Assembly (NCBI GenBank): GCA_038227875.1
Contig: JBBRPR010000010.1
Location: 64,001-128,000, forward strand
DNA from: Planctomycetota bacterium
GTDB taxonomy: Bacteria; Planctomycetota; SZUA-567; H5-PLA8
Direction: 5' to 3'
Length of the DNA: 64,000 bases
The notes under the pieces were generated by a model. That model was not told the origin of the DNA. It did not search any database and saw only the letters and a list, made by a program, of their open reading frames with translations. Made by a program: the position numbers and the translations under genes. The number at the start of each line of letters is the position of its first letter. The stretch's first letter is position 1. Below, one piece after another: positions 41,030 to 62,098 of this stretch.

Positions 41030-41032
41030 ATT

Positions 41033-41057
41033 TGCCGATGATTTGGAATCGTCGGCA
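41033..41057 (+). terminator. Hairpin between the two moxR genes
   Basis: TGCCGATGATT-TGG-AATCGTCGGCA stem-loop, weak U tail. Confidence 0.45.
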
Positions 41058-41138
41058 TAAATTTATCCTATGTTCAAAAAGAAACAGTTCGTTGCAAATT
41101 TGTGTGAGTTTTCGTGCGGGTGTTGAGAAGGAGAAACC

Positions 41139-42149: not shown

Positions 42150-42156
42150 AAAGGTA

Positions 42157-43080
42157 GTGCCCGAGGACTGGATTGTGGCAAAGACCCCGTCGGCCAAACC
42201 CGAACTGCTCGACACCGCGACGCTGGCGCGGCTCAACAGCCTGCAGCTGCTGGCGAAGACGGTCGTTGAAGGATTTATTCTCGGGTTGCATAAATCGCCG
42301 TTCCAGGGCGTCAGCGTCGAATTCGCGGAATACCGCGCTTATGTTCCCGGCGATGACATCAAACACATCGACTGGAAAGTTTACGCGCGCAGCGACCGGC
42401 ATTTCATCAAGCTTTTCGAAGAAGAGACAAATCTCGCCTGCCATGTGGTGCTCGACGCCAGCGGTTCGATGGCCTACGGCTCGCAGCCACTGACGAAACT
42501 GGAGTACGCTGCGCGCATGGCCGCGTGCCTCTGCTATTTCATGATGGGCCAGCGCGACGCCGCGGGGCTGGCGGTGTTCGACACGGAAGTGAAAGCGTTC
42601 CTGCCCGCGCGCTTGCGGCAGAGCCAGCTGCAACACATTCTTTCCACGCTGGAAGAGACCAAACCCGGCGCGGAAACGGACCTCGCCGGACCGCTTCATT
42701 CGGTCGCGGAAACGATCAAGAAGCGCGGCATGGTCGTCGTGATCAGTGATCTGCTCTCCGATGTCGAGCCGCTGGTCGAAGCGCTCCAGCATCTCAAATT
42801 TTCCGGTCATGACGTGCTCGTTTTCCAGGTGCTCGATCCCGATGAAATCGAATTTCCGTTCTCGAAACTGACGGAGTTCACCGACCTGGAAACCGGCGAG
42901 CGGCTGAAGACCTCTGGCCGGTCCGTGCGCGACGAATACATCAAGGAATTCAATACGCATCAGAAAGCCATTCAGGACGCGCTGGCCGATTTGAAGATCG
43001 ACTTCGCGCGCTTCGACACGCGCATGCCGCTGGATTTTGCGCTTTCGGAATACCTCTACCGTCGCGGGAGAAGTGGATGA
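42157..43080 (+). CDS. DUF58 domain protein
   Basis: GVSVEFAEYRAYVPGDDIKHIDWK, FEEETN, DASGSM, ISDL. Confidence 0.92.
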   Translation: MPEDWIVAKTPSAKPELLDTATLARLNSLQLLAKTVVEGFILGLHKSPFQGVSVEFAEYRAYVPGDDIKHIDWKVYARSDRHFIKLFEEETNLACHVVLDASGSMAYGSQPLTKLEYAARMAACLCYFMMGQRDAAGLAVFDTEVKAFLPARLRQSQLQHILSTLEETKPGAETDLAGPLHSVAETIKKRGMVVVISDLLSDVEPLVEALQHLKFSGHDVLVFQVLDPDEIEFPFSKLTEFTDLETGERLKTSGRSVRDEYIKEFNTHQKAIQDALADLKIDFARFDTRMPLDFALSEYLYRRGRSG

Positions 43081-45095: not shown

Positions 45096-46849
45096 TGACA
45101 GAGCTGCAGCGAAAAATCGATGCGGTGCGCGGCGCGTGGCGGCGCACAGAGATGCTCAAAGGCGTCGCCGCGCTGATTTCCGACGCGATAGTGATTGTGC
45201 TGGCCCTGATCGCCATCGACGCGATTTATCACCTCGCCGCGCCGATCCGCGGCGGACTGCTGCTAGTTGGACTCGGGATTCTTGCCGGCGCCGCGTTTCT
45301 TGCATTGTTGAAACCGCTCAAGAAAAAGCATCAAGACGGCGACCTGGCGCTCTACGTTGAAAATCGATTTCCCGATTTGAAAGGCACGCTCATCGCCGCC
45401 GTGGAGTTCGAAGGCCGCGACGCCAGCAGCCCGATGCAGGCCGGCCTGATCGAATCGCTCGTCACCGACTGCCTGGAACGCGCTGCCAAGGTCAACATCG
45501 CCGATGCCATCGACAAAGGGCGGCTGAAGACACGCGTGATCGCTGCCGCCGTGCTGCTCGCGTTTTTTCTCGGCGCGGTGTTGATCAAGCCGCAACTGTT
45601 CCAGCATCAGCTCGCCCGCGTTCTGACGCCGTGGGTCGATGTACCGCTCAGCGAATCCGAGCAGGCGCTGCTGCGCGAAAAGGAAGAGCAGAAAGCCCGG
45701 GCTGAGCAGGTGCTTCATCAGATGGAGGAAGCCGCCAAGCCCATTAAGATCGAACTGAATGTGATGCCCGGCAATACGGATGTGATTCGCGGCGGAGAAC
45801 TGGCGATCGATGCCGGCGCCAACAAGATTACCGCGATTCCCGTGCTGAAATTCAAAGGCAGCGACGGCGAATGGCGCAAGCTGGAGATGAACGAAGACCC
45901 GTCGCGGCCCGAACACTACACCCGTACGCTCAGCGACCTCAGCGAGGACGTCACGTACCGCGTCGCGATGAAAGACGTCGAATCACCGGAATACACGATC
46001 CACGTTTTCGATCCGGCCACAATCAAGAACCTGCGCCTGACGTACCACTTTCCGAAGTTCATGGAGAAGCCCGATCACATCGTCACGGGCATGGACGGCA
46101 ATATCGAGGCGCTCGAAGGGTCCACGGTCGACATCGCACTGCTGGCGACGGGGCCGTTGAAGTCTGGCAAATTGGCGCTGAGCAGCGGCGAAATAGTCAC
46201 GATGTCCGCGACGGGCAACGAAGTTTCCGGCACGATCACCGTCGACAAACCCGGCGACTACAGCATCGTCGCCACCGACACGCGCGGAGCGTCGCTCGCG
46301 CCGCCGACGCGCTTTTCGATCACTCCGCTCAAGCCGTTGCCGCCGACGCTGGACGTCGTCTACCCGGCGCTCGATTCGCTGGTTCATCCCATGGAAGAAA
46401 TCGCGTTCGCCGCGAAAGTCGAAGGCAGCGTCGGTCTGAAGGAAGTGCGCCTCCATTCGTTCTACAACAGTGAAGCCGAGCAAGTCCAGCGCGTCTCGTG
46501 TCGCGAAAACGATCAGCCCGCGACGATGAAACTGGCGGAATTCGTCATCGATCTGGAGAAGCGCAAGAACGTCCAGGCCGGCGACACGATTCTCTATCAC
46601 TTCGAAGCCGAAGACATGAAGGGTCAGGTGTCGTCGAGCGACGTGTACTCCGTGACCGTCCGCGCGATCGAATCGTTCTCCGCCTACGGATATCATCCCG
46701 TCATGCCCGCGCACGGCTATGCCGGCCCGGCGCTGATCAATGTCATCGGCGCCGCGTGGGATCTGCACACCAAAGAGAAAACGATGACCCCCGAAGAATT
46801 CAAAGCCGCCTGCGAAAAAGTGGCGCGTGCGCTGGAAGACAATCACTAG
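45095..46849 (+). CDS. DUF4175-like N-terminal membrane protein with Ig-like repeats
   Basis: Three TMs, ALYVENRFPDL, PGNTDVIRGG, DGNIEALEGS, AGDTILYHFEAED; TAATG coupling with the upstream gene. Confidence 0.72.
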   Translation: MTELQRKIDAVRGAWRRTEMLKGVAALISDAIVIVLALIAIDAIYHLAAPIRGGLLLVGLGILAGAAFLALLKPLKKKHQDGDLALYVENRFPDLKGTLIAAVEFEGRDASSPMQAGLIESLVTDCLERAAKVNIADAIDKGRLKTRVIAAAVLLAFFLGAVLIKPQLFQHQLARVLTPWVDVPLSESEQALLREKEEQKARAEQVLHQMEEAAKPIKIELNVMPGNTDVIRGGELAIDAGANKITAIPVLKFKGSDGEWRKLEMNEDPSRPEHYTRTLSDLSEDVTYRVAMKDVESPEYTIHVFDPATIKNLRLTYHFPKFMEKPDHIVTGMDGNIEALEGSTVDIALLATGPLKSGKLALSSGEIVTMSATGNEVSGTITVDKPGDYSIVATDTRGASLAPPTRFSITPLKPLPPTLDVVYPALDSLVHPMEEIAFAAKVEGSVGLKEVRLHSFYNSEAEQVQRVSCRENDQPATMKLAEFVIDLEKRKNVQAGDTILYHFEAEDMKGQVSSSDVYSVTVRAIESFSAYGYHPVMPAHGYAGPALINVIGAAWDLHTKEKTMTPEEFKAACEKVARALEDNH

Positions 46850-48116: not shown

Positions 48117-48782
48117 TTGAACTCGAATCTTCGAGCTTCGACGCGGGAGTTGTGGATGGCGATGGCAGCGGCCCTGGCAGACGGTCAGCAGATTTCGCAC
48201 TTCCGGTGTGAGCCGGATGCAACCGGCGCGAACGTCACGGCCGAATCGATCGAATCCTTGCGCGCAGGCGATGCCGGCTGCTGGGAGCGCCTGCTGATCC
48301 GCATGGAACGCCGCGCGCTGGCGCTGTCATGGCGGATTCTCAACGACGCGCATCTTGCCGCGGACGCGGTCCAGAACGCGTTCGTCAAAGCGTACACGCG
48401 CCGCTCTGCGCTCCATGCTGGCAGCGACGTGGAGCGCTGGCTGCTGGCGATCGTCGCCAACGCGGCCCGGGATATGGCCCGCCAGAACGCGCGCGCACAC
48501 GGACGAATTCAAGGCAACGCCGAAGAGTTGGCTCAGCGTGCGGAGCATGCCGCGCCGGAAGTCTGCGAGAGCGAAATGGAGCAGCGCTTGCGCGTGGCGT
48601 TATCGAAACTCGATGAGGAGTCGCGCGTGCTTTTTCTGCTCGTCCATCAGGAAGGCTTTTCGTACGAGGCCGTCGCGAAAGAACTGGGGTGGCCGCTGGG
48701 TACGGTGCGGTCGACGCTGCATCGGGCGCGGTTGAGGTTGCGTGAATTACTCAGAAATAGACGCGGGGAGTCCGGATCATGA
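48117..48782 (+). CDS. ECF RNA polymerase sigma factor
   Basis: AADAVQNAFVKAY, WLLAIVAN, GFSYEAVA...LGTVRSTLHRAR; start may be ATG 48156. Confidence 0.9.
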   Translation: MNSNLRASTRELWMAMAAALADGQQISHFRCEPDATGANVTAESIESLRAGDAGCWERLLIRMERRALALSWRILNDAHLAADAVQNAFVKAYTRRSALHAGSDVERWLLAIVANAARDMARQNARAHGRIQGNAEELAQRAEHAAPEVCESEMEQRLRVALSKLDEESRVLFLLVHQEGFSYEAVAKELGWPLGTVRSTLHRARLRLRELLRNRRGESGS

Positions 48783-49627
48783 ACTGCGATTCAGCGCAAA
48801 TCCTGATTCAAGCGCGGCTCGACCGCGAGCTGGATGTCGAGCGCGCCATCGAGTTGGGGGGGCACCTGGCGCTCTGCCCGGAATGCCGCGACTTGTCTGC
48901 GGATCTAGAACAGTGTTGTGTCTCGGCCGGAGTGCTTCCTGAGTTTCGCACCGGCAGTGTGGTGAGCGCAGCGGCGTTGAATCGGATACGCAATGCAGAC
49001 CAACTGCCGAGGCGGAATTGGAGACCGCAGTGGGCCGCTCTGGCGGCAGGTATCGCGATGATCCTGGGATTCGGCGGCTATTTTCGTCTTCGAAGCCCTT
49101 CTCTAACCGAATATCCGAAAGCCGCCGCGCCCGACCGGGTTGTTGTTCCGAAAATTCCTCCACCACATTCAATTCCAGTCGCGCCTGCACCCGCGCCCGA
49201 GGTGGAAATGAATCAGGATCCGATGCAGGCACTTCTGGTGGAGCACTACTGGAGCGAACACCGCCGCCCGGAAGGCGAACGCGCGCGCGAACGCCGCCGT
49301 GCCGAACTGCTTCGCGACTTGCGCAATCCAGACAAAGCCGGCGACGCTGCAGAGGAATTGCTGGATGACGCCGACAACGCCACAGTCTGGGCCGTGGCCG
49401 CGAGCGTGTCGGACACCTCCAGTGGAGCGGAGGTGTTCGCCGCTGCCGCGAAACTCAAGCCCGACCTGCGGCTGGTGCCGGTCTACATTGCCGCTCTCGA
49501 CGCTTCGAAAACACGCGCGCGCGCCACCGAGCTGCTGTGCAGCGCATCGGGAAAAAAGTTTGGATCTCAAAAGGAAATTTGGCTGACGTGGTGGGCCGGA
49601 GCCCGTTCTCAACTCCGCGATGATTAA
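48779..49627 (+). CDS. Zinc-finger (zf-HC2) anti-sigma factor with TM and HEAT-like periplasmic domain
   Basis: MNC...HLALCPEC, TM, Pro-rich linker, C-terminal LCSASGKKFG...WLTWW; ATGA overlap with the sigma gene. Confidence 0.85.
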   Translation: MNCDSAQILIQARLDRELDVERAIELGGHLALCPECRDLSADLEQCCVSAGVLPEFRTGSVVSAAALNRIRNADQLPRRNWRPQWAALAAGIAMILGFGGYFRLRSPSLTEYPKAAAPDRVVVPKIPPPHSIPVAPAPAPEVEMNQDPMQALLVEHYWSEHRRPEGERARERRRAELLRDLRNPDKAGDAAEELLDDADNATVWAVAASVSDTSSGAEVFAAAAKLKPDLRLVPVYIAALDASKTRARATELLCSASGKKFGSQKEIWLTWWAGARSQLRDD

Positions 49628-49664
49628 ATTTTCATGCTTTCGGATTCTTTCAGGAGCAGGCGAC

Positions 49665-50672
49665 ATGCGAAAACTATGGATGGTGATGCTGCTGTGTGGT
49701 GTGGTCTCTGGCGCGTCGGCCCCAGCGGAGGAGGCCAAGCCCGGACTCGCCGTTGAACTGCAGATTTACGATGTCGCGGACATTATCAAGCAGCCCACGG
49801 ATTTTCCGGCGTCAAGGCTGTATCCCGGCAACTCCGATTCGTCCATTGTGTCGCCTTTTGTTGACATTACGCCCGCGCCGTCGTTTCAGGCCGCGGATAT
49901 TGTTTCATTGCTGCACGACCGCGTATTTGCCGCCGAATTCGCCGATCCAAGGACCAGTATTGCCGAAAGTGGCGGCTGCCTGGTGGTGATGCAGACGCCC
50001 GCGATCCAGAAGAAGGTGACCAGTTACATTTCGAAGCTGCGCGGAATCATGAAACCGCAAGTGATCATCAAGGGAAAGTTGATGAGTGCAGCGGATATTC
50101 CTGCAGGAACGATCTTCGATGCCGCGGCGTTCTCAAAATTGAACGCGACGGTAAAGCCGGAGAGCATTCTCGCGTCAACCCGGCTGTTGAGTTACAACGG
50201 CCAACTGGTCCATACTCAGAGCGGACGGCTGTACAGCTACATCCGTGATTACGATGTCGCCGGAAGCGTCTACGACCCGGTGATTGGCCATGGACTGGAA
50301 GGCTATGTTTTTGAAACCCGCTCGACGCTCAGCAGCGATCGCAACAGTGCCGATGTCAATCTCCGCTTCACCTTCACTGCACCCAGCGGAAAGCCGGAGA
50401 CGCGCAACATCGTGCTGGCACCGCCGGTAACCTCGGTCACGGCCGCGGGAGAGAAAGCGCCGGACGCCGCCGCGGCTGCCCAGACGGTCACGCTCCCGAT
50501 AGACGTACCATCCATCGATGTCCAGGAAATCAGCACCACGCTGCGCGTGCCCCTGGGCAAATGGATGCTGGCTGGCGTGATGAACAACCCCGTCCCCAAT
50601 GCGGCAGAGAAACGCGTGCTGCTGTTTATCAGCATCGAACTGGCCGGAACTAACGCTCCCGCTGCCAAGTAG
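49665..50672 (+). CDS. Mini-secretin-like protein 1
   Basis: Signal peptide; IYDVADI N-domain; TRLLSYNGQ...YDPVI...STLSSDRN...TTLRVPLGKWMLAG...LLFIS resembles the secretin beta-core. Confidence 0.65.
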   Translation: MRKLWMVMLLCGVVSGASAPAEEAKPGLAVELQIYDVADIIKQPTDFPASRLYPGNSDSSIVSPFVDITPAPSFQAADIVSLLHDRVFAAEFADPRTSIAESGGCLVVMQTPAIQKKVTSYISKLRGIMKPQVIIKGKLMSAADIPAGTIFDAAAFSKLNATVKPESILASTRLLSYNGQLVHTQSGRLYSYIRDYDVAGSVYDPVIGHGLEGYVFETRSTLSSDRNSADVNLRFTFTAPSGKPETRNIVLAPPVTSVTAAGEKAPDAAAAAQTVTLPIDVPSIDVQEISTTLRVPLGKWMLAGVMNNPVPNAAEKRVLLFISIELAGTNAPAAK

Positions 50673-50722
50673 CCGCGGCACTCCAGCACGATTCCTCCCA
50701 TTGATCCTCAAGGAGATTTTCC

Positions 50723-51805
50723 ATGCGTACACGATGTATGACAGTTCTGATGGTCGTGGGTTGCCTGGCATCCTGTGCCTTTGGCGCCGACGATCCGCCC
50801 AAGATCGACGTCGAAATGAAAATCTACGACGTCCATAGCCTCGTAAACCCGGTTGTGGATTATCCCGGTCCGGATTTGAATTTAGGCGCGTCTCCTGTCT
50901 CTGCCGCCCCCACGGCACCGATGGGCAACGGGGTGAGTCCCAAGGTAACGGTCGTTCCCACGGTCGCGAATATTGTAGACATGCTCAAATCCCGAGTGCG
51001 ACCGGAATCATGGGATCCAGCGCTCGGGACCAGTGTCGAGGAGATGAGCGGCTATCTCGTGATCATGCAGCGGCCCGAAGTTCATGCATTGATTACTCAA
51101 CTGCTCGCCGCGTTTAGCAACACGTCGCAAAGGCAGGTGGTGGTCAAGTCACTGCTCATTCCCGCGGCCACAATTCCCGACGAGACGTTCTTCGACGACG
51201 CTGAACTGAACAAGGCATTCGATGGCAACGCGGCCGCGGCTGCTGTTGCCGCGCCGCGCATATCCTGCTTCAACAAGCAGCGCGTTTACGTGCTGAGCGG
51301 AACTATGGTCTCTGTCGTTCGCGACCTGGACGTCAACGGCGATAGTTACGATCCCGTCGTGACGTCGCAGGTCGATGGCTTTGTTCTCGATGTGCGCCCC
51401 ACGGTTTCCTACGACAGCAGCGTGACGGAACTGGAGCTACGCGCCTCGTTTAACACCAATTTGAAGCGCAATCCCCGGACGCTGGGGACCCCCGCTTCCA
51501 GCGCACTGCGCTCCGTGGCGGCGCTGGCGCAGGAAGAGTCGAGTAGCACCACGACAAAAAAAGAGAACGGCCATGACGAAGTCACTGCCAGCAGCCGCCG
51601 CCCCGCTGGCCAGATCCTGAACGCGCAGTACCTGGTCGGAATCGACATGGATTTTCCCTCCGTCGACAGCGGCAATGTTCGCACGGAACTTTCGATCCCC
51701 ACGGGGAAATGGGTGCTCGCCGCGACGCTGAACAACCCCGACGCAAAATCTCCCAAGAAGAACATGTTGCTCTTCGTGAGTTCCGAAACGATCGACACGA
51801 AGTGA
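50723..51805 (+). CDS. Mini-secretin-like protein 2
   Basis: RBS AAGGAG; signal peptide; IYDVHSL, RVRPESWD, APRISCFNKQR, GFVLDVRPTVSYD, RTELSIPTG, LLFVS. Confidence 0.7.
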   Translation: MRTRCMTVLMVVGCLASCAFGADDPPKIDVEMKIYDVHSLVNPVVDYPGPDLNLGASPVSAAPTAPMGNGVSPKVTVVPTVANIVDMLKSRVRPESWDPALGTSVEEMSGYLVIMQRPEVHALITQLLAAFSNTSQRQVVVKSLLIPAATIPDETFFDDAELNKAFDGNAAAAAVAAPRISCFNKQRVYVLSGTMVSVVRDLDVNGDSYDPVVTSQVDGFVLDVRPTVSYDSSVTELELRASFNTNLKRNPRTLGTPASSALRSVAALAQEESSSTTTKKENGHDEVTASSRRPAGQILNAQYLVGIDMDFPSVDSGNVRTELSIPTGKWVLAATLNNPDAKSPKKNMLLFVSSETIDTK

Positions 51806-52007: not shown

Positions 52008-52034
52008 TGTAACCTCGCCTGTTCCCAAGCGTCT
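52008..52034 (+). promoter_or_regulatory. Putative ECF-type promoter
   Basis: TGTAAC-N16-CGTCT, preceded by an AT-rich tract, about 20 nt upstream of ATG 52054. Confidence 0.5.
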
Positions 52035-52053
52035 CACGTGGGTGCGAACAGGC

Positions 52054-52680
52054 ATGGCTGAAAAAGCGATACCCATCGGCGCCGGAGCTGCAATGAGCTC
52101 CGCTGCCGCGGACGTCTCCGATGCGGAGCTGCTGCGCCGCGTCGCTGCGTCCGATCACCTCCCGGCACGGACCAGGGCGCTGGAACTGCTCTTCGAACGG
52201 CACTCCGAACCGCTGCTCCGCTTTCTCACCCGTACCCTGCGCCACGAACACACCGCCGAAGACATCCTTCACGACGTGTTTGTGCGCGTCGCGGAAGCGG
52301 CGCCGACGTTCCGGGGAGAAAGCACTGTGCGCACGTGGCTCTTCACTCTGGCCTTGAACAAAGTCCGCAGCGGCAAACGCCGCGACGCCGTCGAAAACCG
52401 CGCCACCGAAATGATGGTGGCGTCCCGGCCGGCGCAACACACCGATCACAAGCACGATCCGTTCGAGCAGGCGCAGCAGCGCGAATTGCGCCAGCGCGTC
52501 GACGTGGCCATCGGCGAACTAGGCGCAGACGAACGCGAAACCTTTCTGCTCTACTGGTTCGGCGGCATGAACTACGCCGAAATCAGCGCCGCCAGCAACA
52601 TCACCGTTTCCGCGGCCAAGGTGCGCGTCCATCGCGCGCTGCTGCGTTTGAACAAACTTCTGGGCGAGGCCACGGCGTGA
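52054..52680 (+). CDS. ECF RNA polymerase sigma factor
   Basis: SDAELL, AEDILHDVF, FRGESTVRTWLF, NYAEIS...AAKVRVHRA. Confidence 0.9.
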   Translation: MAEKAIPIGAGAAMSSAAADVSDAELLRRVAASDHLPARTRALELLFERHSEPLLRFLTRTLRHEHTAEDILHDVFVRVAEAAPTFRGESTVRTWLFTLALNKVRSGKRRDAVENRATEMMVASRPAQHTDHKHDPFEQAQQRELRQRVDVAIGELGADERETFLLYWFGGMNYAEISAASNITVSAAKVRVHRALLRLNKLLGEATA

Positions 52681-52729
52681 CGTTTTACTCCGCCTGTTTT
52701 CGCCGACTGCAATTTTGGGAGAGCCGTAC

Positions 52730-55700
52730 ATGAACCAGACCTGCGAACACATTGAAGAGCAAATTCCCGATGCGCTCAGCGGCCGCTTGAATGGCGCCGC
52801 GCTGGCCGAACTGGAAGCGCACTGCGAAATCTGTGCGGATTGCCGGGCACTCTACGGTTCATTCGAACAGACCACGCAACTGTTGGAACGCGCGTTTCCC
52901 GTCTCGGGCGGCCATCGTCCTGAACTGTGGGATCGGATCGAATCCAGCGTGAGCGCCAAGTCGGCGCGCATGGCCGCGCCACGCGTGATTCCGGCGTGGG
53001 GCCCGATCGCTGCCGCCGCCGCGATGGTTGCGCTCGCTGTTCTGCTCTTTGCCGGAAGCCCGGCGCGCCGCACCGAAAACGTTGCGAGCGTGACTGTGCC
53101 ACCCATCACAGAAACTCCACGTGAGAAAACGTCGAAAAGCACGACGCCGACGCCCGTGGCGATCGCGCGCGGTCCTCGTGAGGTCATCGACGACACGCGC
53201 GGCCTGGCGCTCTTGCGGACGACCGGCCCGGTCTTTACGTTCGACGCGGAGCACCAGGCGTGGCGTCAGGTCGTCTCCGGTGAGCGAATCGCTTATGGCG
53301 CCGCGCTCCGCACCGCGCCCGGCGCACTGGCGGAACTGGCCTTCGGCGAAAGCCGGGTGCGCGTCGATGAAAAGTCGGAAGTCACGGTCTCCAACGCGAC
53401 GGTATCCGCCGCGCGGGTGGCTGAATTGACGCACGGCCGTGTGCGCGTCGATCTGCTCCATTCCGAACGCCCCTTTCAGATCCGCTCCGGCGGCGGCATG
53501 GTGGAACTCACCGGTACCGTCGTCGACGTGGACGCGCCGGCCACCGATCTCGCTTTCGTGCAGGTCCTCGAAGGCCACGTCCGCGTCACGCCCGCCGCGA
53601 ACACAGCCGACGTTGCGCCCGTATCCGTCGTAGCTGGGCAGGAAGCGTTGGTCGCGTCGCGCATCAACGCTGCGCTGCTGAAGTCTCTCCCTGCCGACGT
53701 GCAAGCGCGCTTGAGCGCCTTCAAATCGTCGCAGGCCCTCGGCCGCGATGCAGCCGCGAACTGGACGGATTCGCTCGATCATCCGCCGTCGCCGAAAAAT
53801 TCCGCGATCGGACAACTGATCGTCAAAGACGAACACGGCCGCGAAGCCGAACCACTGCGCATCGTCAGCATGGATGTGAAAACGCAGGTTCGCGGTCCAG
53901 AATCGATCACCCGTATCGACCAGAGCTTCTACAACTCCACCAACGGTACGTTGGAAGGCACGTTCTATTTCAACGTGCCGCCCGGAGCCGCGATCTCGCG
54001 CTTTGCGATGTACGTCGACGAAAAAAATCTGATCGAGGGTGAAGTTGTCGAACGTGGCCGGGCCCGCGCCATCTACGAATCGATCCTGCACGCCAAGCGC
54101 GATCCCGCGCTGCTGGAATGGGTCGACGGCAACACCTTCAAAGCGCGCGTCTTCCCGATCCAGGCGCGCAGCAACAAGCGTATCATCATGGAATACACGC
54201 AGGTGCTGCCTGCGTTCTTCGACACGCGACGTTACGTTTTTCCGCTCGTCAGCGATCTGGCGCAGAAAGCCGAAATCGGAAAACTGAGCATCCAGGTTCA
54301 ACTCGCCACCGGCGACAGCTCGAGCTTCAGCGAAATCGCGTCGCCGTCCTACTCAAGCGACCTGCGCATCCAAGGCGATGGTGAAGCCTTCGCCACTGCG
54401 TCGCTCCATCTGGAGCACGCCCGCCCGGCGGCCGACTTTGTCCTCAATTTCTCCGCGCCGCGCGCGTCGGAACTCTACGCGTCGGCATATGCGCAGAACG
54501 GCGAGCAGCCCTACCTTCTATTGGGCTACCAGCCGCGCCTTCCGGCCACCTACAAGCGCGCCGCGAATGCCGCGGGCCGCGACATTCTCTTCGTCGTGGA
54601 AACCTCCGGCGCGCGCACGCCGCAGGACCTGAGCGCCCAGCGCCAGGCGCTCACCGCGATGCTCGCCGCGCTGAACGATAACGATCGCGTCGCATTCGCC
54701 GCCGCCGACATCGGACTCGTGCCGCTCACGACACGTTTTCTCCCCGCGCGCGCCGCGGAAGTCGATGCCGCTCTCGCCGCGCTCAAGCAGCGTGTGGCGA
54801 TGGGCGCGCTCGATCTCTCGGCGAGCATTCGCGCCGCCGCTACCAGCTTCGATACATCAGCCCCAACTCGCGAGCGCCTGATGCTCTTCATCGGCTCCGG
54901 CGTGCCCGCGCTGGGCGAACTCGACAGCGGCAAAATCGCAGCGGAAGGTGCGGAAGCTCTGGCCAAAGCGAAAGCGTCGTTCGTCGCCGTCTCGCTCGGC
55001 CAATCGGTCGATGCGCTGACGCTCTCGGAAGTCGCGCGCCGCAGCAATGGTTTCTATCTGCCGCTGAAAGCCGACGAAGGCCTCGACGCCGCCGCCTTCC
55101 AACTGGCGCTCGGTCTGCAAACGCCGCTGCTCACGTCGCCGGAATTCAAAGCCGACGCCAACTGCACCGCCGAAATCTATCCCGCGAACCTCGGCGCGTT
55201 GCTGCCCGGCCAGGAGATCTTCCTCAACACGCGCGCCGCCAAAACCGGCGCTTCAGTGCTTCGCTTCACGCTGAGCGCCGAACTTCAGAAGCAGCCGTTC
55301 ACGTCCAACTTCGTGGTCGCGCTCCCGTCCGACCTCAGCGCCGACCCCGCCGCCGGCCGTTTCTGGGCGCGCGCGCGTCTGGATCATCTCCTCGCGCAGC
55401 CGCAAAGCGACGAATTGCGCAACGAAGTCATCGAACTGGCCAAAACCTGGACGCTGATGAGCCCGTACACATCATTCCTGGTGCTCGAATCCAACGAGGA
55501 ATACAAACGCTACGACATCGACCGCAGCAAACGCCGCCCGGCCTGGCGGGATCTGGAAGCTCCGACAGTGGCTCAGAATCCGGGCCAGTCGCTCATCGGT
55601 GTGCTCACCCGCGTCAAAGGCAGCAGGAGCGGGGTCGCCTACGAGAAGTCTGCGAATGCCTATGTAATTCGCGATCCTGCTGCGGAATCCACCGGCTTGC

Positions 55701-58700
55701 TGCAAGAAGGATTGAAGTTCTTCAACGAACTCGAATACGAGTCGGCGAAGCCGGCTCTCGAGCGCGCCGTTCTTCTGGATCCGACCAACGAAGTTGCAAA
55801 GCAGAAACTGCAGACTGTGAACTCGTTGCTCGCAATCCATGTAGACAAAATCGGGCGCAAGATTCGCGAATTGGAACAGGGGGAGCGCGTCAGGCAGTCG
55901 GAGTCGCTGGTCCAACTTGCCAACGCGTTTCAAGATGGCCGGAGTCAAGAAGAACTGGGCTCAAAGCCCGCGCAAGAAACGACCGGCGCGAACAAGGAAC
56001 AGATTCTTGCCGACCAGCTCGACCATTTGCGAAAGGCACAGGACAAGTTCCGCCGCGTCACAGAAATCCTGAACTGGTTGCCGCCGTCGTTCGACCTGCC
56101 GTCTGAACGTGCGTCAGTCGAAGATTCCTTGAAGCGCACTAAACAGAAAATCGCTGAGAAGGAAGACGAGATCATTTACCTGCGACGCGTCGCTGCGCAA
56201 AAAGAGGCCGACGAAAACCGCGTGCGGGAGACGGAATTGTTCAAGGCGCGCATTGCCAAACTGACCGAGCAGGTCAAGGATCGCTACTATCGCGGCGACT
56301 ACAAAGCAGCCGAGCGGCTGTCGACGCGGATTCTCCAGATAGATCCGTTCAACACGGACGCTGAAGGCTGGAAGTTGAAAGCGCAGGGAGCGGGGATGTC
56401 GCTCAACGGAAGAAACGCTTCAGAGCATCCTGATGAATACGTGGACGCGGATATCGACAAAGCGACCATTGGGTTTGCGCCAATCATTCTCTACCCATCT
56501 AACTGGGACCAGATTACACGGCGTGTGGACGATTTGACAAAAGTATCGCGCGGCAGCTTGGCTGAGAAAGCAAGTATCGGCAAAGAGTATCAAGGATTGG
56601 ATGCCCGAGTCTTATTCGGCGACTTTGGAGATATTAAGAATTTGCCACGCGTCGATCTGGGAACGACACGCGGCGAAGTCATTGATCCCTTCAAAGCTCC
56701 ACTGAGATGGGACCTTCAATCGCAAGCCGACGCGCACCGCGAAGCCGGGAAGCGCCTGTTCGATTCCTTCAAGCTCGCGGATACCAATCTCGAGAGTTCA
56801 GATTCTCGAAAATCCAAACAAGAGCAGAGTGAATTCGATCAATTGAAGCGCGAAATTGAAGATTTACGAAAGCGGCTAAAGACTGCGGGAACAAACCCGC
56901 GAATCACCTATGTGGATAGCGTGTTGGATAGCAAATATGGTCCCAATACTTCTGTAACCACGAAGAACGGCGATCTGAAAATCGGTGGGCTGACTCAGGC
57001 CTGGCATGGGAAAGAGTCAGATCCAGAGACCGCGGCTCGCATCCATGGTGTGGATTCGGAAACTGGCGAGTCGAATGCCGAGCAACGGGCTCGCATGCGC
57101 GAATACGAGAAGCAGAAATTCAGCACGGTAGAAAAGGCAGCAGAGGACCTAACAAAAGCGCAGCAAGACGATGAGTTGAAGAGCTATAAAGTTCTTAACG
57201 GTCGGCTCGATGTCCACTCGGAAGAGGTCGCTGAAGTCCGGGACAATGACACGGAAACAACCGGCCGCAAAGAGGTCGCCATCGCCGCGAAGGACAATAC
57301 CATCCGCCAGCAGGAATCACTGCTCGCTCAGGAGAAAGCGGAGAAGGAGACACTCGCCGAACAGAACAAGGCGTTGGCTGAACAGAATCTCCAACTCGCT
57401 GAAAAGAACGCCAGGATCGCCCAAGAGCAGGCTGCGGAAACGATGGCGCTGGGTCAGAAAATTGCGGAACAGGACAGTTTACTTCATGACTTGGGAACGC
57501 TGTACTCGCGCGGCGCGATGACGGATACGAAGCACGACGCGTTGGAGAAGATGCCGGAATCGGCAACGAAAACGCCAGCGCTTTCTCCGGAACTTGAGAT
57601 CTACGATGTCCGCGATTTGACAAATACCATTGCCGACTTCCCAGGACCGGAATTGAAGCTGGAGAAGAAAGAGGCCGCTCCGCCGACGCCTCCAACGGAA
57701 ACGGCGACACCGCCAAAGAGAGACATTGCGGATCTGATGGCAAAATTGATCGACAAGGGTGTGCCCAATACGTCGATTGCAGAGAACAACGGGCAACTCG
57801 TGGTCATGGCCGACCCCGTGTCCCAGGCGAAGGTGGCGAAGGCGTTGAAGGAAATGCGCGAGCCCAACAACTCCAATATCTTCGAAACGATAAATGATCA
57901 GTTGAAGACTGCTCGCAATACCGCAAAAAGCGGGGGATTCGGACCCGTGAGTTCGCCGCAGCCGAAAATCTGCGCGATCTGTAATCAGCCTTTGTTCAAG
58001 CACGCCGATCCGAATTTTGTCTGTCAGCCAAACGCGGACCGTAGCGACCAGCGAGCAAACCAGGAGTTGCGTCTCAAGTTCAACGCCGAACGGGATGCTC
58101 ATCAGGAGGCTCTCGCAAAACTCGCGACTGCGGAGCACGAAAATGGCAAGCTGCTGGCTGAAGACCAGGAATACATCAAGAAAAGTACGCAAGAATTGAA
58201 CGACCACACGTCGGTATTGAGTTCGCCGGTGCTCTTCCAGGGATTGACCAAGGAGCTGCTACGTACCACGCCAACCGACCCGCAGGTCCGCGCGCGAAAC
58301 GAGAAGTCGGAACTCGAATATGAATTGGCGATCACCAACCAGACGCTCAGCGCGCTGGAAAAGGATAAGCGCAGCGTTGAAGAAGACCTGGCACTTCAAA
58401 CCAGCCGAATTGAGCGGCTGCTAAAATCAGGTGTTCCAATCGCTCGGCTTCTGGGAGAAGATTCGGCGTCCGATGGGCCAGCCACAGCCTCGGCACCGAA
58501 AACCCCTCCAGCAAGCGCGCCTGGCGATGTTCTTCCAGGCTTCTTTAGCCGCGCGGAGATTCCGTTGGATCTGCCGCAAACCTCCCAGCGAATCGAAGTC
58601 ACGAAAGTGGTCCCGTCGCCGGTGCCGGAACATCCCGCGTCGCATGAACAACCCTACCGGGCAACCTTCGGTCCGATCAGTAACGATTCGGCCGACATCG

Positions 58701-60430
58701 CGAAGCTCAAAGATGAAGTGAACGCCGCCAAGCAGAAGCTCGCGCAGCAGAATCGGGACAAGCATGCCATCGAAGAAGATCTCGCCCTGCAAACCAGCCG
58801 CATTGAAAGGCTGATGAAGAACGGCGTGCCGATCGCGCATCTTGTTGGGGAAGATCCAACCGCGACGCAACCGTTCGTCGCCGATGGCCAAGTGCTGGGC
58901 GTTCGTCCTGAGATTAGACTTGTGATGCTGTCCATAGGTTCGCAACAGGGCGTCAAGCCTGGCTTCCAGTACACCATTAAGCGCGGTGACCAATACGTCA
59001 CACGAGTAATTGTCGAAAAGGTGTATCCAGATATGTCGTCGGCCCGCTATGTCGAAGGTCTTATGAATAAAGAAGGCCGTGAGGTCGAAGTGAACGACGA
59101 AGTCATCACGCGTGGCGGGAGCGCACCCGTCTCCGACGACAAACCCCTCGCGCCGAAAACCGCACCCGTCAATCTCTCCCGCGACCAAATCGCCGCACTG
59201 CTTGCCACCATGCCCAAAAATTCCGATGTCGCCGCCGCGCGTGCGGAACTTTACCGCAAGCTTGCGGCGCTCAGCACTGGGCTTGACGCCTGCCGCGTCC
59301 TCGCGCAAGGCCTCGCGGAATTCCAGGGTGAAGGGACGCAGGCCGAACAGCTCGCGGGCGATGTCGTTGTGCTCGTCGACAGTGAATCCAGCGCGGCGGT
59401 GCTCGACGCGATGCTGCCGCTGCTCAGCGATGAAAATCTGCGAGCGCGGGTGCTCGCTCGGCGCGGCGCGGTGGAACCGGACTTGAACAAGCGCTGTGAA
59501 TTTCTGGCGTCGGCGTTCGAAGCGTCCGGAAAAGAAGTGTCGTACCTTCACCCGCTGGCGGTGGCGCTGAATACCGGAGGGCGTCACGCTCAAGTCATTG
59601 CGCGGCTGGAAGCGAGTCTGCGTTCCGGCGGCGCGCAGAATTGGATGTGGCCGCTGCTCACCGTGTCGTACCGCGCGATCGGCGATGCGGCCGGCGCACT
59701 GCGCGCGGGCTCGCAGCTTGTCGCGCAGCATCCGCGGGAAGCGGCGCCGCGCATGGAATTCGCACGGGCGCTGGATGGCCTGGGCCGGGGTGCCGATGCG
59801 ATCCGCGAAATGCGCGCAGCCTGCACGTTTGCGCCGGAGAACGTCGACGCGGTGCGCGCGCTGCGCGACCTTTCTAAAAAGTACGACGATGCGGAAACGC
59901 GCGCGTGGGCGCTGCTGGCGCTGCTCCGCAACGACTGGGGCAACGACAGCCAGCCGATCTGGGCCGACACGCGCAAGGAACTGGACGCGCTGAAAGCCGA
60001 TTTTCTCAAAGCCGGAATGAAGGACAAGGCCGCGGATCTCGCCAGCCGAGCCCGCGAAGCGGACGTCACCGACATCGTCGCGGTGATGAGCTGGAACACG
60101 GACAAGACCGACATTGATCTGCACGTGGAAGAGCCCGGCCAGCAGCGCGTCAGCTACAATTCACGCTCGACGTTCCGCGGCGGCAACCTCGATCACGACA
60201 ACACCTCCGGCTACGGCCCGGAGACGTACACGCTGCGCCACGCGCCGGCCGGGCGGTACATCATCAAGGTCCACTACTATTCCGGCCAACCACCGACCGA
60301 CGTGACGATCAACGTCACGCGCCGCAAGGGCGGAGCAGAAGAGACGACGCAGACGTTCCACGTTCACCTTGAGAAGGCGCATGACGAGCAGATTGTGGAG
60401 ACGATCGATATTCCGAACGGAACGGAATGA
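52730..60430 (+). CDS. Giant anti-sigma factor: zf-HC2 + TM + FecR + VIT + vWA + mosaic insert + TPR + DUF2135-like
   Basis: HCEICADC; TM; FecR (LTHGRV, GTVVDV, VLEGHV); VIT (LEGTFYF...ARAIYE...RDPALLEW...RVFPI); vWA-like FVVETSG; MSPYTSFLVLE; TPRs; SWNTDKTDIDLHVEEP...DNTSGYGPE. Single uninterrupted frame. Confidence 0.85.
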   Translation: MNQTCEHIEEQIPDALSGRLNGAALAELEAHCEICADCRALYGSFEQTTQLLERAFPVSGGHRPELWDRIESSVSAKSARMAAPRVIPAWGPIAAAAAMVALAVLLFAGSPARRTENVASVTVPPITETPREKTSKSTTPTPVAIARGPREVIDDTRGLALLRTTGPVFTFDAEHQAWRQVVSGERIAYGAALRTAPGALAELAFGESRVRVDEKSEVTVSNATVSAARVAELTHGRVRVDLLHSERPFQIRSGGGMVELTGTVVDVDAPATDLAFVQVLEGHVRVTPAANTADVAPVSVVAGQEALVASRINAALLKSLPADVQARLSAFKSSQALGRDAAANWTDSLDHPPSPKNSAIGQLIVKDEHGREAEPLRIVSMDVKTQVRGPESITRIDQSFYNSTNGTLEGTFYFNVPPGAAISRFAMYVDEKNLIEGEVVERGRARAIYESILHAKRDPALLEWVDGNTFKARVFPIQARSNKRIIMEYTQVLPAFFDTRRYVFPLVSDLAQKAEIGKLSIQVQLATGDSSSFSEIASPSYSSDLRIQGDGEAFATASLHLEHARPAADFVLNFSAPRASELYASAYAQNGEQPYLLLGYQPRLPATYKRAANAAGRDILFVVETSGARTPQDLSAQRQALTAMLAALNDNDRVAFAAADIGLVPLTTRFLPARAAEVDAALAALKQRVAMGALDLSASIRAAATSFDTSAPTRERLMLFIGSGVPALGELDSGKIAAEGAEALAKAKASFVAVSLGQSVDALTLSEVARRSNGFYLPLKADEGLDAAAFQLALGLQTPLLTSPEFKADANCTAEIYPANLGALLPGQEIFLNTRAAKTGASVLRFTLSAELQKQPFTSNFVVALPSDLSADPAAGRFWARARLDHLLAQPQSDELRNEVIELAKTWTLMSPYTSFLVLESNEEYKRYDIDRSKRRPAWRDLEAPTVAQNPGQSLIGVLTRVKGSRSGVAYEKSANAYVIRDPAAESTGLLQEGLKFFNELEYESAKPALERAVLLDPTNEVAKQKLQTVNSLLAIHVDKIGRKIRELEQGERVRQSESLVQLANAFQDGRSQEELGSKPAQETTGANKEQILADQLDHLRKAQDKFRRVTEILNWLPPSFDLPSERASVEDSLKRTKQKIAEKEDEIIYLRRVAAQKEADENRVRETELFKARIAKLTEQVKDRYYRGDYKAAERLSTRILQIDPFNTDAEGWKLKAQGAGMSLNGRNASEHPDEYVDADIDKATIGFAPIILYPSNWDQITRRVDDLTKVSRGSLAEKASIGKEYQGLDARVLFGDFGDIKNLPRVDLGTTRGEVIDPFKAPLRWDLQSQADAHREAGKRLFDSFKLADTNLESSDSRKSKQEQSEFDQLKREIEDLRKRLKTAGTNPRITYVDSVLDSKYGPNTSVTTKNGDLKIGGLTQAWHGKESDPETAARIHGVDSETGESNAEQRARMREYEKQKFSTVEKAAEDLTKAQQDDELKSYKVLNGRLDVHSEEVAEVRDNDTETTGRKEVAIAAKDNTIRQQESLLAQEKAEKETLAEQNKALAEQNLQLAEKNARIAQEQAAETMALGQKIAEQDSLLHDLGTLYSRGAMTDTKHDALEKMPESATKTPALSPELEIYDVRDLTNTIADFPGPELKLEKKEAAPPTPPTETATPPKRDIADLMAKLIDKGVPNTSIAENNGQLVVMADPVSQAKVAKALKEMREPNNSNIFETINDQLKTARNTAKSGGFGPVSSPQPKICAICNQPLFKHADPNFVCQPNADRSDQRANQELRLKFNAERDAHQEALAKLATAEHENGKLLAEDQEYIKKSTQELNDHTSVLSSPVLFQGLTKELLRTTPTDPQVRARNEKSELEYELAITNQTLSALEKDKRSVEEDLALQTSRIERLLKSGVPIARLLGEDSASDGPATASAPKTPPASAPGDVLPGFFSRAEIPLDLPQTSQRIEVTKVVPSPVPEHPASHEQPYRATFGPISNDSADIAKLKDEVNAAKQKLAQQNRDKHAIEEDLALQTSRIERLMKNGVPIAHLVGEDPTATQPFVADGQVLGVRPEIRLVMLSIGSQQGVKPGFQYTIKRGDQYVTRVIVEKVYPDMSSARYVEGLMNKEGREVEVNDEVITRGGSAPVSDDKPLAPKTAPVNLSRDQIAALLATMPKNSDVAAARAELYRKLAALSTGLDACRVLAQGLAEFQGEGTQAEQLAGDVVVLVDSESSAAVLDAMLPLLSDENLRARVLARRGAVEPDLNKRCEFLASAFEASGKEVSYLHPLAVALNTGGRHAQVIARLEASLRSGGAQNWMWPLLTVSYRAIGDAAGALRAGSQLVAQHPREAAPRMEFARALDGLGRGADAIREMRAACTFAPENVDAVRALRDLSKKYDDAETRAWALLALLRNDWGNDSQPIWADTRKELDALKADFLKAGMKDKAADLASRAREADVTDIVAVMSWNTDKTDIDLHVEEPGQQRVSYNSRSTFRGGNLDHDNTSGYGPETYTLRHAPAGRYIIKVHYYSGQPPTDVTINVTRRKGGAEETTQTFHVHLEKAHDEQIVETIDIPNGTE

Positions 60431-60523: not shown

Positions 60524-62098
60524 ATGCGCTGTTCCCTCGTGCGGTTCGGTGTCTATTTGGTTTTTGCGGCAAGCCCTTTCGTGGCCTATGCCAGCTCGAT
60601 TGATGACCTGCGGCAGGAAGTCGAGCGCCTCAAAAAAGAAGTCGCGGTCCACGCCGCTCCCGAAATCCCCATTGAACAAAAATATCCCGGCTCCGTCGAC
60701 GCCTGTTCATCCGCTGTTGCGGTGCGCAGCCGTGCGACATTGACCGTCGGCGGCTTGCTGCAGGTCTGGTATCAATCGGTTCAGAACGATCGGCGCGGCA
60801 TCGTCTTCAATTCGCCGGTCAGCGATCTCAGCGGCGAATCGAACCAGACCAACGACAACGATACCTTCCGTATTCGCCGCGCGGAACTGCGCTTCGTCGC
60901 CGATGTCGACGAGCATTTCAGCGCTCACGTCACGCTGGATCCAGCGCGTGAAAGTTCGGCCTCGTTTTACCCGCTGCCCACGTTCATGAATCACAACCGG
61001 CTGCTGTCGCCGGCGCTTCCCAACACCACGCTTGGCGGTGTACCCGTCGCCGCGGGCACACGCACGACGCTCAGCGCCAACCAGATCACGCCTTTATTAT
61101 TGGAAGACGCGTACATCAGCATTCACGATTGGCTGCCGCACCATGAAGTTCTGCTCGGACAGATGAAGCCGCCGTCGGGCGCGGAAGCGTGGACGGACAA
61201 TGGCGACCTCGATTTTGTCGAACGCTCACTGATCGCGCAGGCGTCGGACATCCGCGACATCGGCGTGATGGTCCACGGCACGTGGTTCTGCGAACGACTG
61301 CAGTACTGGGTCGGGGCGTTCAACGGGCCGGACGGCACGACACTGGCCGATACCGAGAACGTCACCGGTGCCAATCGCGCTGACGACAACAACGACAAGG
61401 ATTTTGCGTGGCGTGTTCTGGCCCGGCCGGTGTGGAATGCCGATGCGTGGTCCGGCCGCCTGGAAGTCGGCTACGCGCGCACCGATGGCTACCGCGGCAG
61501 CAGCGGCCAGGCCTTCGATGCGTCGACGCCGCTCAACGCGTTGAACGAGCAGCGTACCGCCATCAACCGGCAGAACGCCTGGTTGACGTACCGTCCCGGC
61601 GGAGTGCTGCGCGGCGTCTGGGCGCGCGGCGAATGGGAATCGCAGCATGCACGTTTTAGCGCGTTCCGCGGCCGCACGAATCTGCTCGGCACGGGTTCCG
61701 ACGCCGCGAGCATTGATGGGACAACGGTGATCTTCGGGCAGCTGAACCCCGCGCCGGTGACCGCGTCCGGCTGGAGCGCTTCGGCCGGCTACCGCCTCTC
61801 GGAATCCCGCTTCGCCGCTTGTTCGTGCGATTCCTCGGGTCTGCGCCAGGCGCTGAACAATTTGGAGTTCGCCTTCCGCGCCGAACAGTATGAAAACGTC
61901 GCCGCCGAAAGTTTCGTGAATCCCGATCGCGCCACGAATCTCTACCGCACGCGCGTCTACACCGGCGGCGTGAATTACTACATGAGCGCCGCGAGCAAAC
62001 TGCAGTTGAACTACGGTATCGTCAAAGACCCCCGCAGCGGAGCCCTCCGCGACGTCCGCAACAATTTCCTCGCGCTGAATTTCCAGGTGGGGTTTTGA
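60524..62098 (+). CDS. Outer-membrane porin (OprO/OprP-like family)
   Basis: Signal peptide, coiled coil, FRIRRAEL, LEDAY, GQMKPP, LDFVERS, RDIG, GAFNG, GVNYY and terminal FQVGF. Confidence 0.8.
   Translation: MRCSLVRFGVYLVFAASPFVAYASSIDDLRQEVERLKKEVAVHAAPEIPIEQKYPGSVDACSSAVAVRSRATLTVGGLLQVWYQSVQNDRRGIVFNSPVSDLSGESNQTNDNDTFRIRRAELRFVADVDEHFSAHVTLDPARESSASFYPLPTFMNHNRLLSPALPNTTLGGVPVAAGTRTTLSANQITPLLLEDAYISIHDWLPHHEVLLGQMKPPSGAEAWTDNGDLDFVERSLIAQASDIRDIGVMVHGTWFCERLQYWVGAFNGPDGTTLADTENVTGANRADDNNDKDFAWRVLARPVWNADAWSGRLEVGYARTDGYRGSSGQAFDASTPLNALNEQRTAINRQNAWLTYRPGGVLRGVWARGEWESQHARFSAFRGRTNLLGTGSDAASIDGTTVIFGQLNPAPVTASGWSASAGYRLSESRFAACSCDSSGLRQALNNLEFAFRAEQYENVAAESFVNPDRATNLYRTRVYTGGVNYYMSAASKLQLNYGIVKDPRSGALRDVRNNFLALNFQVGF

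Follow-up and report, generated by a model that had tools for sequence, protein, structure and literature searches.

The giant anti-sigma factor and its partner

The window analysed here is a 64,000-nucleotide (nt) stretch of a Planctomycetota genome (positions 64,001 to 128,000 of contig JBBRPR010000010.1; genome G000 in our comparisons). It carries an intact 7.7-kb open reading frame (ORF), 52715..60430, for a giant anti-sigma factor, and inside this gene, at 57590..57865, a copy of a secretin N-domain that is the starting point of this study. All features given below by window coordinates lie on the forward (+) strand. Read from the TTG at 52715 the protein has 2,571 amino acids (aa); the database version has 2,566 aa, which fits a start at the ATG at 52730. 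Orthologues in the same family have 2,080 to 3,317 aa, and public annotations call these proteins just VIT, TPR or VWA proteins.

The protein opens with a zf-HC2 domain (aa 10-44, 52742..52846) that scores below the Pfam cut-off (PF13490, E 0.0034, 17.9 bits against 22.2), and its H-x3-C-x2-C motif, typical of ZAS-type anti-sigma factors, reads HCEICADC; in the orthologue P0082 the same domain reaches 30.6 bits. Behind it follow a hydrophobic stretch at about aa 91-114, spotted by eye in the sequence; a FecR domain (aa 198-290, 53306..53584; PF04773, E 1.7e-9, 38.4 bits against a cut-off of 24); and a VIT domain (aa 384-494; PF08487, 9e-23) with a VWA_3 domain (aa 623-781; PF13768, 3.4e-15), the two together spanning 53864..55057. 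The protein closes with a DUF2135-like domain (aa 2510-2551, 60242..60367; PF09906, E 0.055 here and 1.6e-5 in the orthologue P0091) that belongs to a conserved C-terminal core of TPR and DUF2135; the last ca. 400 aa are 43-45% identical among orthologues.

Its cognate partner is the extracytoplasmic function (ECF) sigma factor sigma-2 (52042..52680; Pfam Sigma70_r2, 2.1e-12, and Sigma70_r4_2, 3.8e-11), whose gene ends at 52680, so that sigma factor and anti-sigma factor (from 52715 or 52730) are adjacent, as expected of the ZAS type. A sigma-2 orthologue (46-52% identity) lies directly 5' of the giant anti-sigma orthologue in four other genomes of the family (G010, G008, G006 and G014). Because this pair recurs in four genomes and the zf-HC2 domain is clear in an orthologue, we accept the 2,571-aa protein as a predicted ZAS-type (zf-HC2) membrane anti-sigma factor with a periplasmic part of ca. 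2,450 aa. A candidate autoregulatory ECF promoter, GTAACC-N15-CGTCT, is found at 52009..52034, and the motif GTAACY-N15-CRTCY stands at the same position 5' of the sigma-2 orthologues in five genomes. A genome scan with GTAACY-N14-16-CRTCY gave 33 matches, 15 of them with an ORF downstream; the sole convincing site is the one before sigma-2. The motif stops just 7 nt before the GTG of sigma-2, so that the transcript may have almost no leader; alternatively, translation may begin at the ATG four codons downstream.

A secretin N-domain inside the anti-sigma factor

The segment 57590..57865 translates without stops, in frame with the rest of the ORF, into 92 aa (aa 1626-1717). A sequence-only reading had taken it for a secretin N-domain related to the N-termini of two proteins encoded upstream, which it called mini-secretins, and these alignments are indeed far above chance: BLASTP gave E 2e-14 (34% identity, 96 columns) with the 350-aa product of 49620..50672, and E 9e-13 (33%, 98 columns) with the 360-aa product of 50723..51805. 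The pairwise match to the large secretin P0006 has E 9e-16. A six-frame search of the genome with the 92 aa returned six clear copies: the segment itself; three large secretins (E 1.7e-13, 2.4e-13 and 3.7e-8); and the two mini-secretins (1.1e-7 and 1.3e-7). The large secretins, of 943, 953 and 1,013 aa, are P0006 and P0007 (A-type) and P0008 (B-type), with PF00263 at E 1e-25 to 2e-24, and in all three the module precedes this barrel domain (module at aa 458-554 or 580-683, PF00263 from aa 754 or 825).

None of these sequences, be it the segment, the whole anti-sigma factor, the two mini-secretins or P0006-P0008, gave a direct match to the Pfam Secretin_N family (PF03958) at E<=1, and genome-wide PF03958 matches just the classical secretins on contigs C60, C111, C19 and C12. 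The three segments do group in one profile. Built from six modules (profile A1), it found 1,638 representatives at E<=1e-3 among 1.84 billion, and these include the poly-Secretin_N proteins P0127, P0139 and P0125 (with 16, 8 and 3 PF03958 stretches, respectively). The A1 match coincides with PF03958 in P0111 (792-844 against 794-847) and P0152 (747-796 against 758-795). A direct sequence search of the PDB with mini-secretin 1 or with the six-module profile had no match at E<=10; the profile of the mini-secretin family matched six PDB entries, all six secretins (best PilQ, 6w6m, 5.5e-5), with the module aligned to the final N-domain of PilQ (6w6m residues 264-334) and on into the first barrel strand. 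Other carriers of the module came to light in these searches. P0127, P0139 and P0125 are giant Secretin_N-repeat proteins for which the Pfam scan lists no Secretin barrel domain; P0076 (5,106 aa) has 15 matches to the module profile; and P0124 (1,483 aa) joins a full serpin domain (E 5e-97) to STN and several copies of the secretin-N module.

The predicted fold agrees with the profile. An AlphaFold2 (AF2) model of aa 1620-1722, built with 31 aligned modules, shows the beta-alpha-beta-beta-alpha order of KH-like domains (strands at 7-12, 68-72 and 75-80; helices at 52-59 and 82-96 of the model) at a mean predicted local distance difference test score (pLDDT) of 72.5, with a long loose loop after the first strand; this is the 30-aa Pro/Thr-rich loop between strand 1 and helix 1. 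In a VIA-align comparison with 48,161 PDB chains, secretins fill the first 13 ranks (Z 6.5-8.0; root-mean-square deviation 2.0-5.7 over 57-87 residues), among them XcpQ 241-324, GspD N1, PilQ 250-318 and pIV 109-175, and KH domains rank below them. Foldseek also puts a secretin first (ExeD, E 0.19, probability 0.99) and gives no match at E<=1e-3. The scores are middling for a domain of this small size, yet because the top VIA-align ranks are all taken by secretins the model persuades us that the copy has the KH-like fold of secretin N1/N3 domains, as the sequence-only reading had supposed.

As to the origin of the copy, it is 42-45% identical to A-type secretins, 37-38% to the B-type and 33-37% to the mini-secretins. 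We made a quick tree of 40 secretin-N modules, with support from the Shimodaira-Hasegawa-like approximate likelihood ratio test (SH-aLRT). The copy falls among secretin modules, where it groups, with weak support (SH-aLRT 80), with A-type secretins, modules of the mini-secretin-1 type and the anti-sigma copies of G008 and G010; it shows no specific tie to the mini-secretins. Behind the copy comes a piece resembling a DUF2225 protein and, unlike in P0006-P0008 and the mini-secretins, no PF00263 or barrel; since no secretin barrel follows, the giant anti-sigma factor is not itself a secretin. Taken together, the alignments, profiles and fold identify aa 1626-1717 as a true secretin N-domain of the N3 (last-N-domain) type, copied from the planctomycetal A-type secretin lineage.

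A mosaic of envelope-protein pieces

The N-domain copy is one tile of a ca. 1,200-aa middle region (aa ~950-2140) made up of pieces of envelope proteins. We mapped the tiles by tblastn of the giant anti-sigma factor against its own genome, at 35-80% identity. The first (aa 957-987, 55583..55675) is a fragment of a classical Secretin_N domain, 61% identical over 31 aa (E 5.3e-4 genome-wide) to residues 291-321 of a 678-aa GspD-type secretin on C19, inside the PF03958 domain of that protein (256-342). The largest (aa 991-1306, 55685..56632) corresponds to the TPR/coiled-coil N-terminal region of the B-type secretin P0008 (residues 189-505; 66% over 321 columns, BLASTP E 5e-120; 65.7% by tblastn), and overlaps a 24-aa piece (aa 1287-1310, 56573..56644) that is 79% identical to P0008 706-729 (E 1e-8 pairwise, 5.5e-5 genome-wide). 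Next comes a piece like the N-terminal coiled coil and first strand of Porin_O_P-type outer-membrane proteins (aa 1364-1431, 56804..57007), matched at nine loci with 35-61% identity (E 5e-9 to 8e-4); the porin-like source protein on C67 is a PF07396 member, and the matched Porin_O_P paralogues lie elsewhere in the genome. A copy of the coiled coil with which a 336-aa OmpA-family protein (C63; PF00691) begins in its mature form follows at aa 1513-1603 (57251..57523; 77% over 91 aa, E 9e-26). Behind the N3 copy lie a piece like the mature N-terminus of a 718-aa DUF2225 protein (C21; aa 1716-1852, 57860..58270; 37% over 137 aa, E 2.7e-19) and two copies of a 298-aa protein encoded on C88 (aa 1771-1943 and 1996-2138, together 58025..59128; 51% and 80%, E 3e-39 and 4e-67). 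Short pieces like A-type secretins stand in the region of the C88 copies, at aa 1831-1853 and 1963-1993 (pairwise E 1e-4 and 8e-3), and further secretin stretches matched by tiles are residues 68-119, 625-656 and 694-716 of P0006. The B-type block followed by A-type pieces repeats the order of the adjacent P0008 and P0007 genes on their contig, and because of this shared order we infer that the secretin tiles derive from a copied P0008/P0007 gene pair.

The middle region is therefore a patchwork of copied parts that face the periplasm in envelope proteins of the same cell; the mosaic itself is placed in the periplasm by topology, with the membrane span seen by eye. An assembly chimera was considered and rejected: the identities are 35-83% and not close to 100%, and independent assemblies carry orthologous mosaics.

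Some of the source proteins and related copies deserve a note of their own. The C88 protein (L014 1085-1978, G000:C88, minus strand) has an N-terminal membrane span, a coiled coil and a small beta-barrel, and a Pfam scan of its 298 aa gave no match; it is kept at ca. 297 aa in relatives of this genome, and the anti-sigma factors of G000, G008 and G010 contain copies of it. A second anti-sigma factor of this genome (L084, G000:C36:11731-14322, minus strand; 864 aa, with zf-HC2 and five DUF4349 stretches) shares the OmpA-protein coiled-coil piece with the giant one (37% to aa 1514-1682). Finally, a lone 236-aa ORF (L085, G000:C20:100149-100856, minus strand), 35% identical to anti-sigma aa 991-1143, is a copy, covering the first half, of the B-type secretin's TPR/coiled-coil region and has no Pfam match.

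Conservation, selection and donor tracking

Tiles of these kinds recur in orthologues from other genera. In those of G008 (2,080 aa) and G010 (3,317 aa) the N-domain is accompanied by an STN-like domain and by TPR/coiled-coil blocks, with an insert of ca. 200 aa in the N-domain loop of G010. The module is likewise present in the G003 orthologue, whose sequence is divided between contigs, and in the database protein P0091; most of these proteins have an STN-like domain as well. The same types of tiles occur in a second anti-sigma architecture, zf-HC2...vWF_A-VWA-YfbK_C (P0061 and P0136): the porin N-terminus, the OmpA coiled coil, a C88-like piece, the secretin TPR region, STN and N3. Among 16 large proteins scanned with Pfam, zf-HC2 was found at E<=1e-3 in four, and two more, the window protein and P0091, are their orthologues.

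Within each genome the copies follow their donors, the N3 tile of the window being the exception (see below). In all eight blocks tested, the anti-sigma copy best matches the donor of its own genome. For G000 the identities are 69% for TPR-B (best other <=54%) and 83% for the C88-like block (trimmed alignment; best other <=57%), the latter being sister to its own gene with SH-aLRT 100. In the tree, the G000 TPR/coiled-coil tile is likewise sister to its own B-type secretin (support 100/99), inside the B-type orthologue clade. For G010 they are 75% for STN (<=71%), 65% for TPR-A (<=52%), 50% for TPR-B (<=49%) and 89% for the C88-like block (<=84%), which forms a starred clade (96) with its own gene, the branching inside that clade being unresolved. 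In G008 the C88-like block (65%, best other <=59%) is sister to its own gene (SH-aLRT 98), and the STN+N3 block gives the weaker case (44% against 42%).

Selection was gauged for five G000 blocks by a crude Nei-Gojobori count of the proportions of nonsynonymous (pN) and synonymous (pS) differences between tile and donor; synonymous sites are saturated, so that values of dN/dS are crude as well. Three high-identity blocks (77-82% at the aa level) have pN 0.11-0.22 against pS 0.66-0.76, the OmpA coiled coil standing at 0.17 against 0.66. The weaker N-terminal C88-like block has 0.32 against 0.66, and the N3 tile 0.42 against 0.72. Since pN is far below a pS of 0.66-0.76, the tile copies are, as judged from these counts, old and under purifying selection, and are neither fresh conversion tracts nor decaying junk. 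Recent gene conversion was rejected as the cause of the high identities on the same saturation of synonymous sites; any conversion or re-copying must therefore be old.

What the tiles may do

Planctomycetota have many ECF sigma factors with very large and unexplained anti-sigma partners, and to our knowledge the sensing of outer-membrane assembly trouble is largely unknown outside the model Proteobacteria. For the protein described here we tentatively prefer, at somewhat under an even chance, the reading that the mosaic is a bait region that binds its parent proteins and so couples the state of the envelope to the anti-sigma factor. Each tile would be a bait that keeps the self-association surface of its parent, be it an N-domain edge or a coiled-coil stalk. 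In the periplasm it would bind the parent protein or its assembly intermediates, and the anti-sigma factor would thereby be linked to envelope complexes. A shortage, an excess or a faulty assembly of the partners would then change this binding and with it the exposure of the anti-sigma factor to periplasmic proteases, and the altered exposure would lead to release of the sigma factor.

Several of our results weigh against a bait function. The genome scan with the sigma-2 promoter motif found no site before a secretin, porin or OmpA gene. The orthologues of genus g7 (G006, and G014 by hidden Markov model (HMM)) lack secretin tiles: the middle of the G006 protein consists of low-complexity sequence only, and the HMM finds no module in either genome; the tiles are therefore dispensable for the core function of the anti-sigma factor. 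Some tiles, of 16-31 aa, are too short to fold and resemble recombination scars. The N3 tile of the window is itself a poor witness. It sits on a long branch (1.25) of the 40-module tree, where its placement is unsure; it has lost the consensus M-Q-R-P-E-x-H and reads M-A-D-P-V-S-Q; its structural support is middling on all counts (pLDDT, Foldseek E value and a Z of at most 8.0); and it does not track its own genome, matching the A-type secretin of G000 at 42.3% (69.7 bits) and that of G006 at 42.0% (67.4 bits).

Some of these points also fit neutral accretion, which we consider unlikely. Here illegitimate recombination or gene conversion brings fragments of highly expressed envelope genes into a tolerant and largely unstructured linker, and the secretin N-domain folds without any sensing role, adding at most length or bulk. 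The very short tiles and the lost N3 consensus residues fit this explanation, as does the fact that tile content and order differ among orthologues, down to the low-complexity middle of G006. So do the branches of the anti-sigma copies, which are longer than those of their donors (0.42 against 0.089, 0.18 against 0, and 1.25 for N3). However, a spacer would hardly be expected to show pN far below pS in five of five blocks, in a 7.7-kb ORF that has stayed intact. Nor does it account for the recurrence of the same tile types in a second anti-sigma architecture, for the tile order 'GDxGDIxNL - porin-like - HGVD' common to G000 and G010, or for the tracking of own-genome donors by eight of eight blocks despite saturated synonymous sites.

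Donor tracking is equally compatible with co-evolution with a partner that tile and parent have in common. The tiles could then be decoys or competitors that bind the shared partners of their parents (inner-membrane platform, pilotin or chaperone, peptidoglycan) and not the parents themselves, and by competing with the clients of the assembly machinery the anti-sigma factor would signal how much of its capacity is free. Several tiles do come from the folded region that stands first behind a signal peptide, lipobox or membrane anchor in the source protein, where targeting and assembly factors could act: C63, C21, the porins and residues 68-119 of P0006. Others are internal or barrel-proximal in their secretins, however (P0008 706-729; P0006 625-656 and 694-716; C19 291-321), and we regard this explanation as quite improbable.

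If, as in the preferred reading, the tiles bind their parents, the partner of the sensor can be read from the genome as the paralogue that the tile tracks, and such regulators become testable without prior knowledge of the signal. It is conceivable, though on balance rather unlikely, that planctomycetal giant anti-sigma factors in general are bait arrays that string together self-associating parts of many outer-envelope proteins, each kept in step with its parent gene. An array of this kind, with pieces of secretins and porins, of an OmpA-type tether and of a coiled-coil membrane protein, would capture its parent proteins homotypically and so monitor how the outer-membrane proteome as a whole is assembled. 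As a sensing principle this would differ from the peptide sensing of DegS/RseA and from Psp. Independently of function, three things emerge from the work: a widespread module (the 1,638 representative clusters), whose copies in this genome escape Pfam; minimal secretins of ca. 350 aa as a family; and a regulator that has evolved in concert with structural genes over a long time. A full-text literature search, judged at the level of its listings, turned up no description of secretin N3 or TPR modules inside anti-sigma factors, and in the main text of the ECF reclassification paper the word 'secretin' occurs 0 times.

The mini-secretins and other neighbours

The two upstream proteins merit the name given to them. 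Mini-secretin 1 (49620..50672; 350 aa, or 335 aa from Met16) combines an N3-type domain with a reduced barrel, and mini-secretin 2 (50723..51805; 360 aa) is its full-length paralogue (E 8e-46, 31% identity). The AF2 model of mini-secretin 1 (pLDDT 87.4, predicted template modelling score 0.77) has 39 Foldseek matches in the PDB at E<=1e-3, and all 39 are secretins (best BfpB, 8.7e-9). By sequence, neither protein matches PF00263 at E<=1, and 11 of 33 aligned family members do so at E<=0.01 (best 2.1e-5); NCBIfam gives just weak MshL matches (E 1.3e-3 and 7.4e-5) at the junction of N-domain and barrel; and a word-based homologue search with mini-secretin 1 yielded just seven matches. From the predicted fold it is fair to call these ca. 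350-aa proteins minimal secretins. In the module tree the N-domain of mini-secretin 2 is sister to that of the B-type secretin P0008 (SH-aLRT 95), and that of mini-secretin 1 falls with the A-type clade; the mini-secretin pair (49620-51805) thus mirrors the large tandem A/B secretin pair (L002 3338-9312).

The mini-secretins belong to a different operon, headed by a separate ECF sigma factor (48117-48782) and a 282-aa zf-HC2 anti-sigma factor (48779-49627; both by Pfam, together 48117..49627). The genes for this sigma factor, its anti-sigma factor and mini-secretin 1 overlap end to end, and the same four-gene order, with the mini-secretin pair, is found in G005. Among six genomes examined, just G000 and G005 have a sigma/anti-sigma pair upstream of the mini-secretins; in G010, G004 and G014 the upstream ORFs had no sigma or anti-sigma match in Pfam, and G024, one of two extra loci checked for mini-secretin context, gave no BLAST match. 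Mini-secretin pairs are present in G005, G004, G010 and G014.

The sequence-only reading had gone further and proposed that the N-domain of the giant anti-sigma factor docks into or monitors the rings of these two neighbours, as a one-protein analogue of the Psp response. The homology of the segment to their N-domains, their secretin fold and the adjacency of the genes in this genome speak for it, but we think it very improbable, as the large A-type secretins resemble the copy more closely, the mini-secretin operon has a sigma/anti-sigma pair of its own both here and in G005, BLAST finds no mini-secretin on the loci retrieved around the giant anti-sigma orthologues of G010, G008, G006 and G014 (the G010 pair sits on another contig), and the Pfam matches of the anti-sigma factor at E<=1 include no PspA/IM30, PspB or PspC family, the genome itself not having been searched for psp genes.

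Two further neighbours may be mentioned. Directly 3' of the anti-sigma gene lies a gene for a Porin_O_P-type outer-membrane protein (60524..62098; PF07396, E 4.8e-16). Upstream, 40025-46849 codes for two MoxR-type AAA_3 ATPases, a DUF58/VWA protein and a BatA-VWA protein, a further VWA-rich cluster near the VIT-VWA anti-sigma factor.

Comparison with known systems

The sigma-E system with RseA/DegS and the Psp response are envelope-stress systems that report on the assembly of outer-membrane proteins or secretins. The former senses the C-terminal peptides of unfolded porins via the PDZ domain of a protease, and the latter responds to membrane damage from mislocalised secretins. We know of no copies of client proteins in either of them, and Pfam finds no parts homologous to these systems in the giant anti-sigma factor. 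With the N1-N3 domains of GspD, XcpQ and PilQ the copied module shares the beta-alpha-beta-beta-alpha fold and, in the paralogous secretins of this genome, the place before the barrel; it differs by the lack of a direct PF03958 match, by the long low-complexity loop after strand 1 and by having no barrel.

A link between an ECF sigma/anti-sigma pair and a secretion system that includes a secretin exists in PUMA3 of Pseudomonas aeruginosa. There VreA-VreI-VreR stand beside the Hxc type II secretion genes, with an STN-superfamily domain without barrel in VreA and a rise of hxc genes upon overexpression of VreI (hxcQ 4.4-fold) (PMC2729926). In that system the STN domain is on a separate periplasmic protein and not inside the anti-sigma factor, and there is neither an N3 domain nor a mosaic; our promoter-motif scan, for its part, gave no sign of sigma-2 driving secretin genes.

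FecR, PupR and FoxR are single-pass anti-sigma factors with a FecR domain, which the window protein also has (PF04773). Their periplasmic STN subdomain engages an outer-membrane protein through the latter's homologous N-terminal signalling domain, and this binding shields the anti-sigma factor from proteolysis: the periplasmic domain of PupR contains an STN subdomain and binds the signalling domain of PupB (PMC7186176), and the signalling domain of FoxA protects FoxR from proteolysis (PMC11637429). The window protein, ca. eight times longer than the 324-aa PupR, has no Pfam match to FecR_C or STN at E<=1. STN-like domains do adjoin the N3 copy in its orthologues, with STN matches at mid-protein positions in P0082, P0091 and P0159, and also in P0061. 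The copied domain here is an N3-type ring domain; the type of partner would be a secretin and not a TonB-dependent transducer; and many more tiles, taken from several unrelated envelope proteins, accompany the domain. With these differences in mind, we consider that the STN subdomain of FecR, PupR and FoxR offers a closer precedent than Psp for an anti-sigma factor that carries a copy of its presumed partner.

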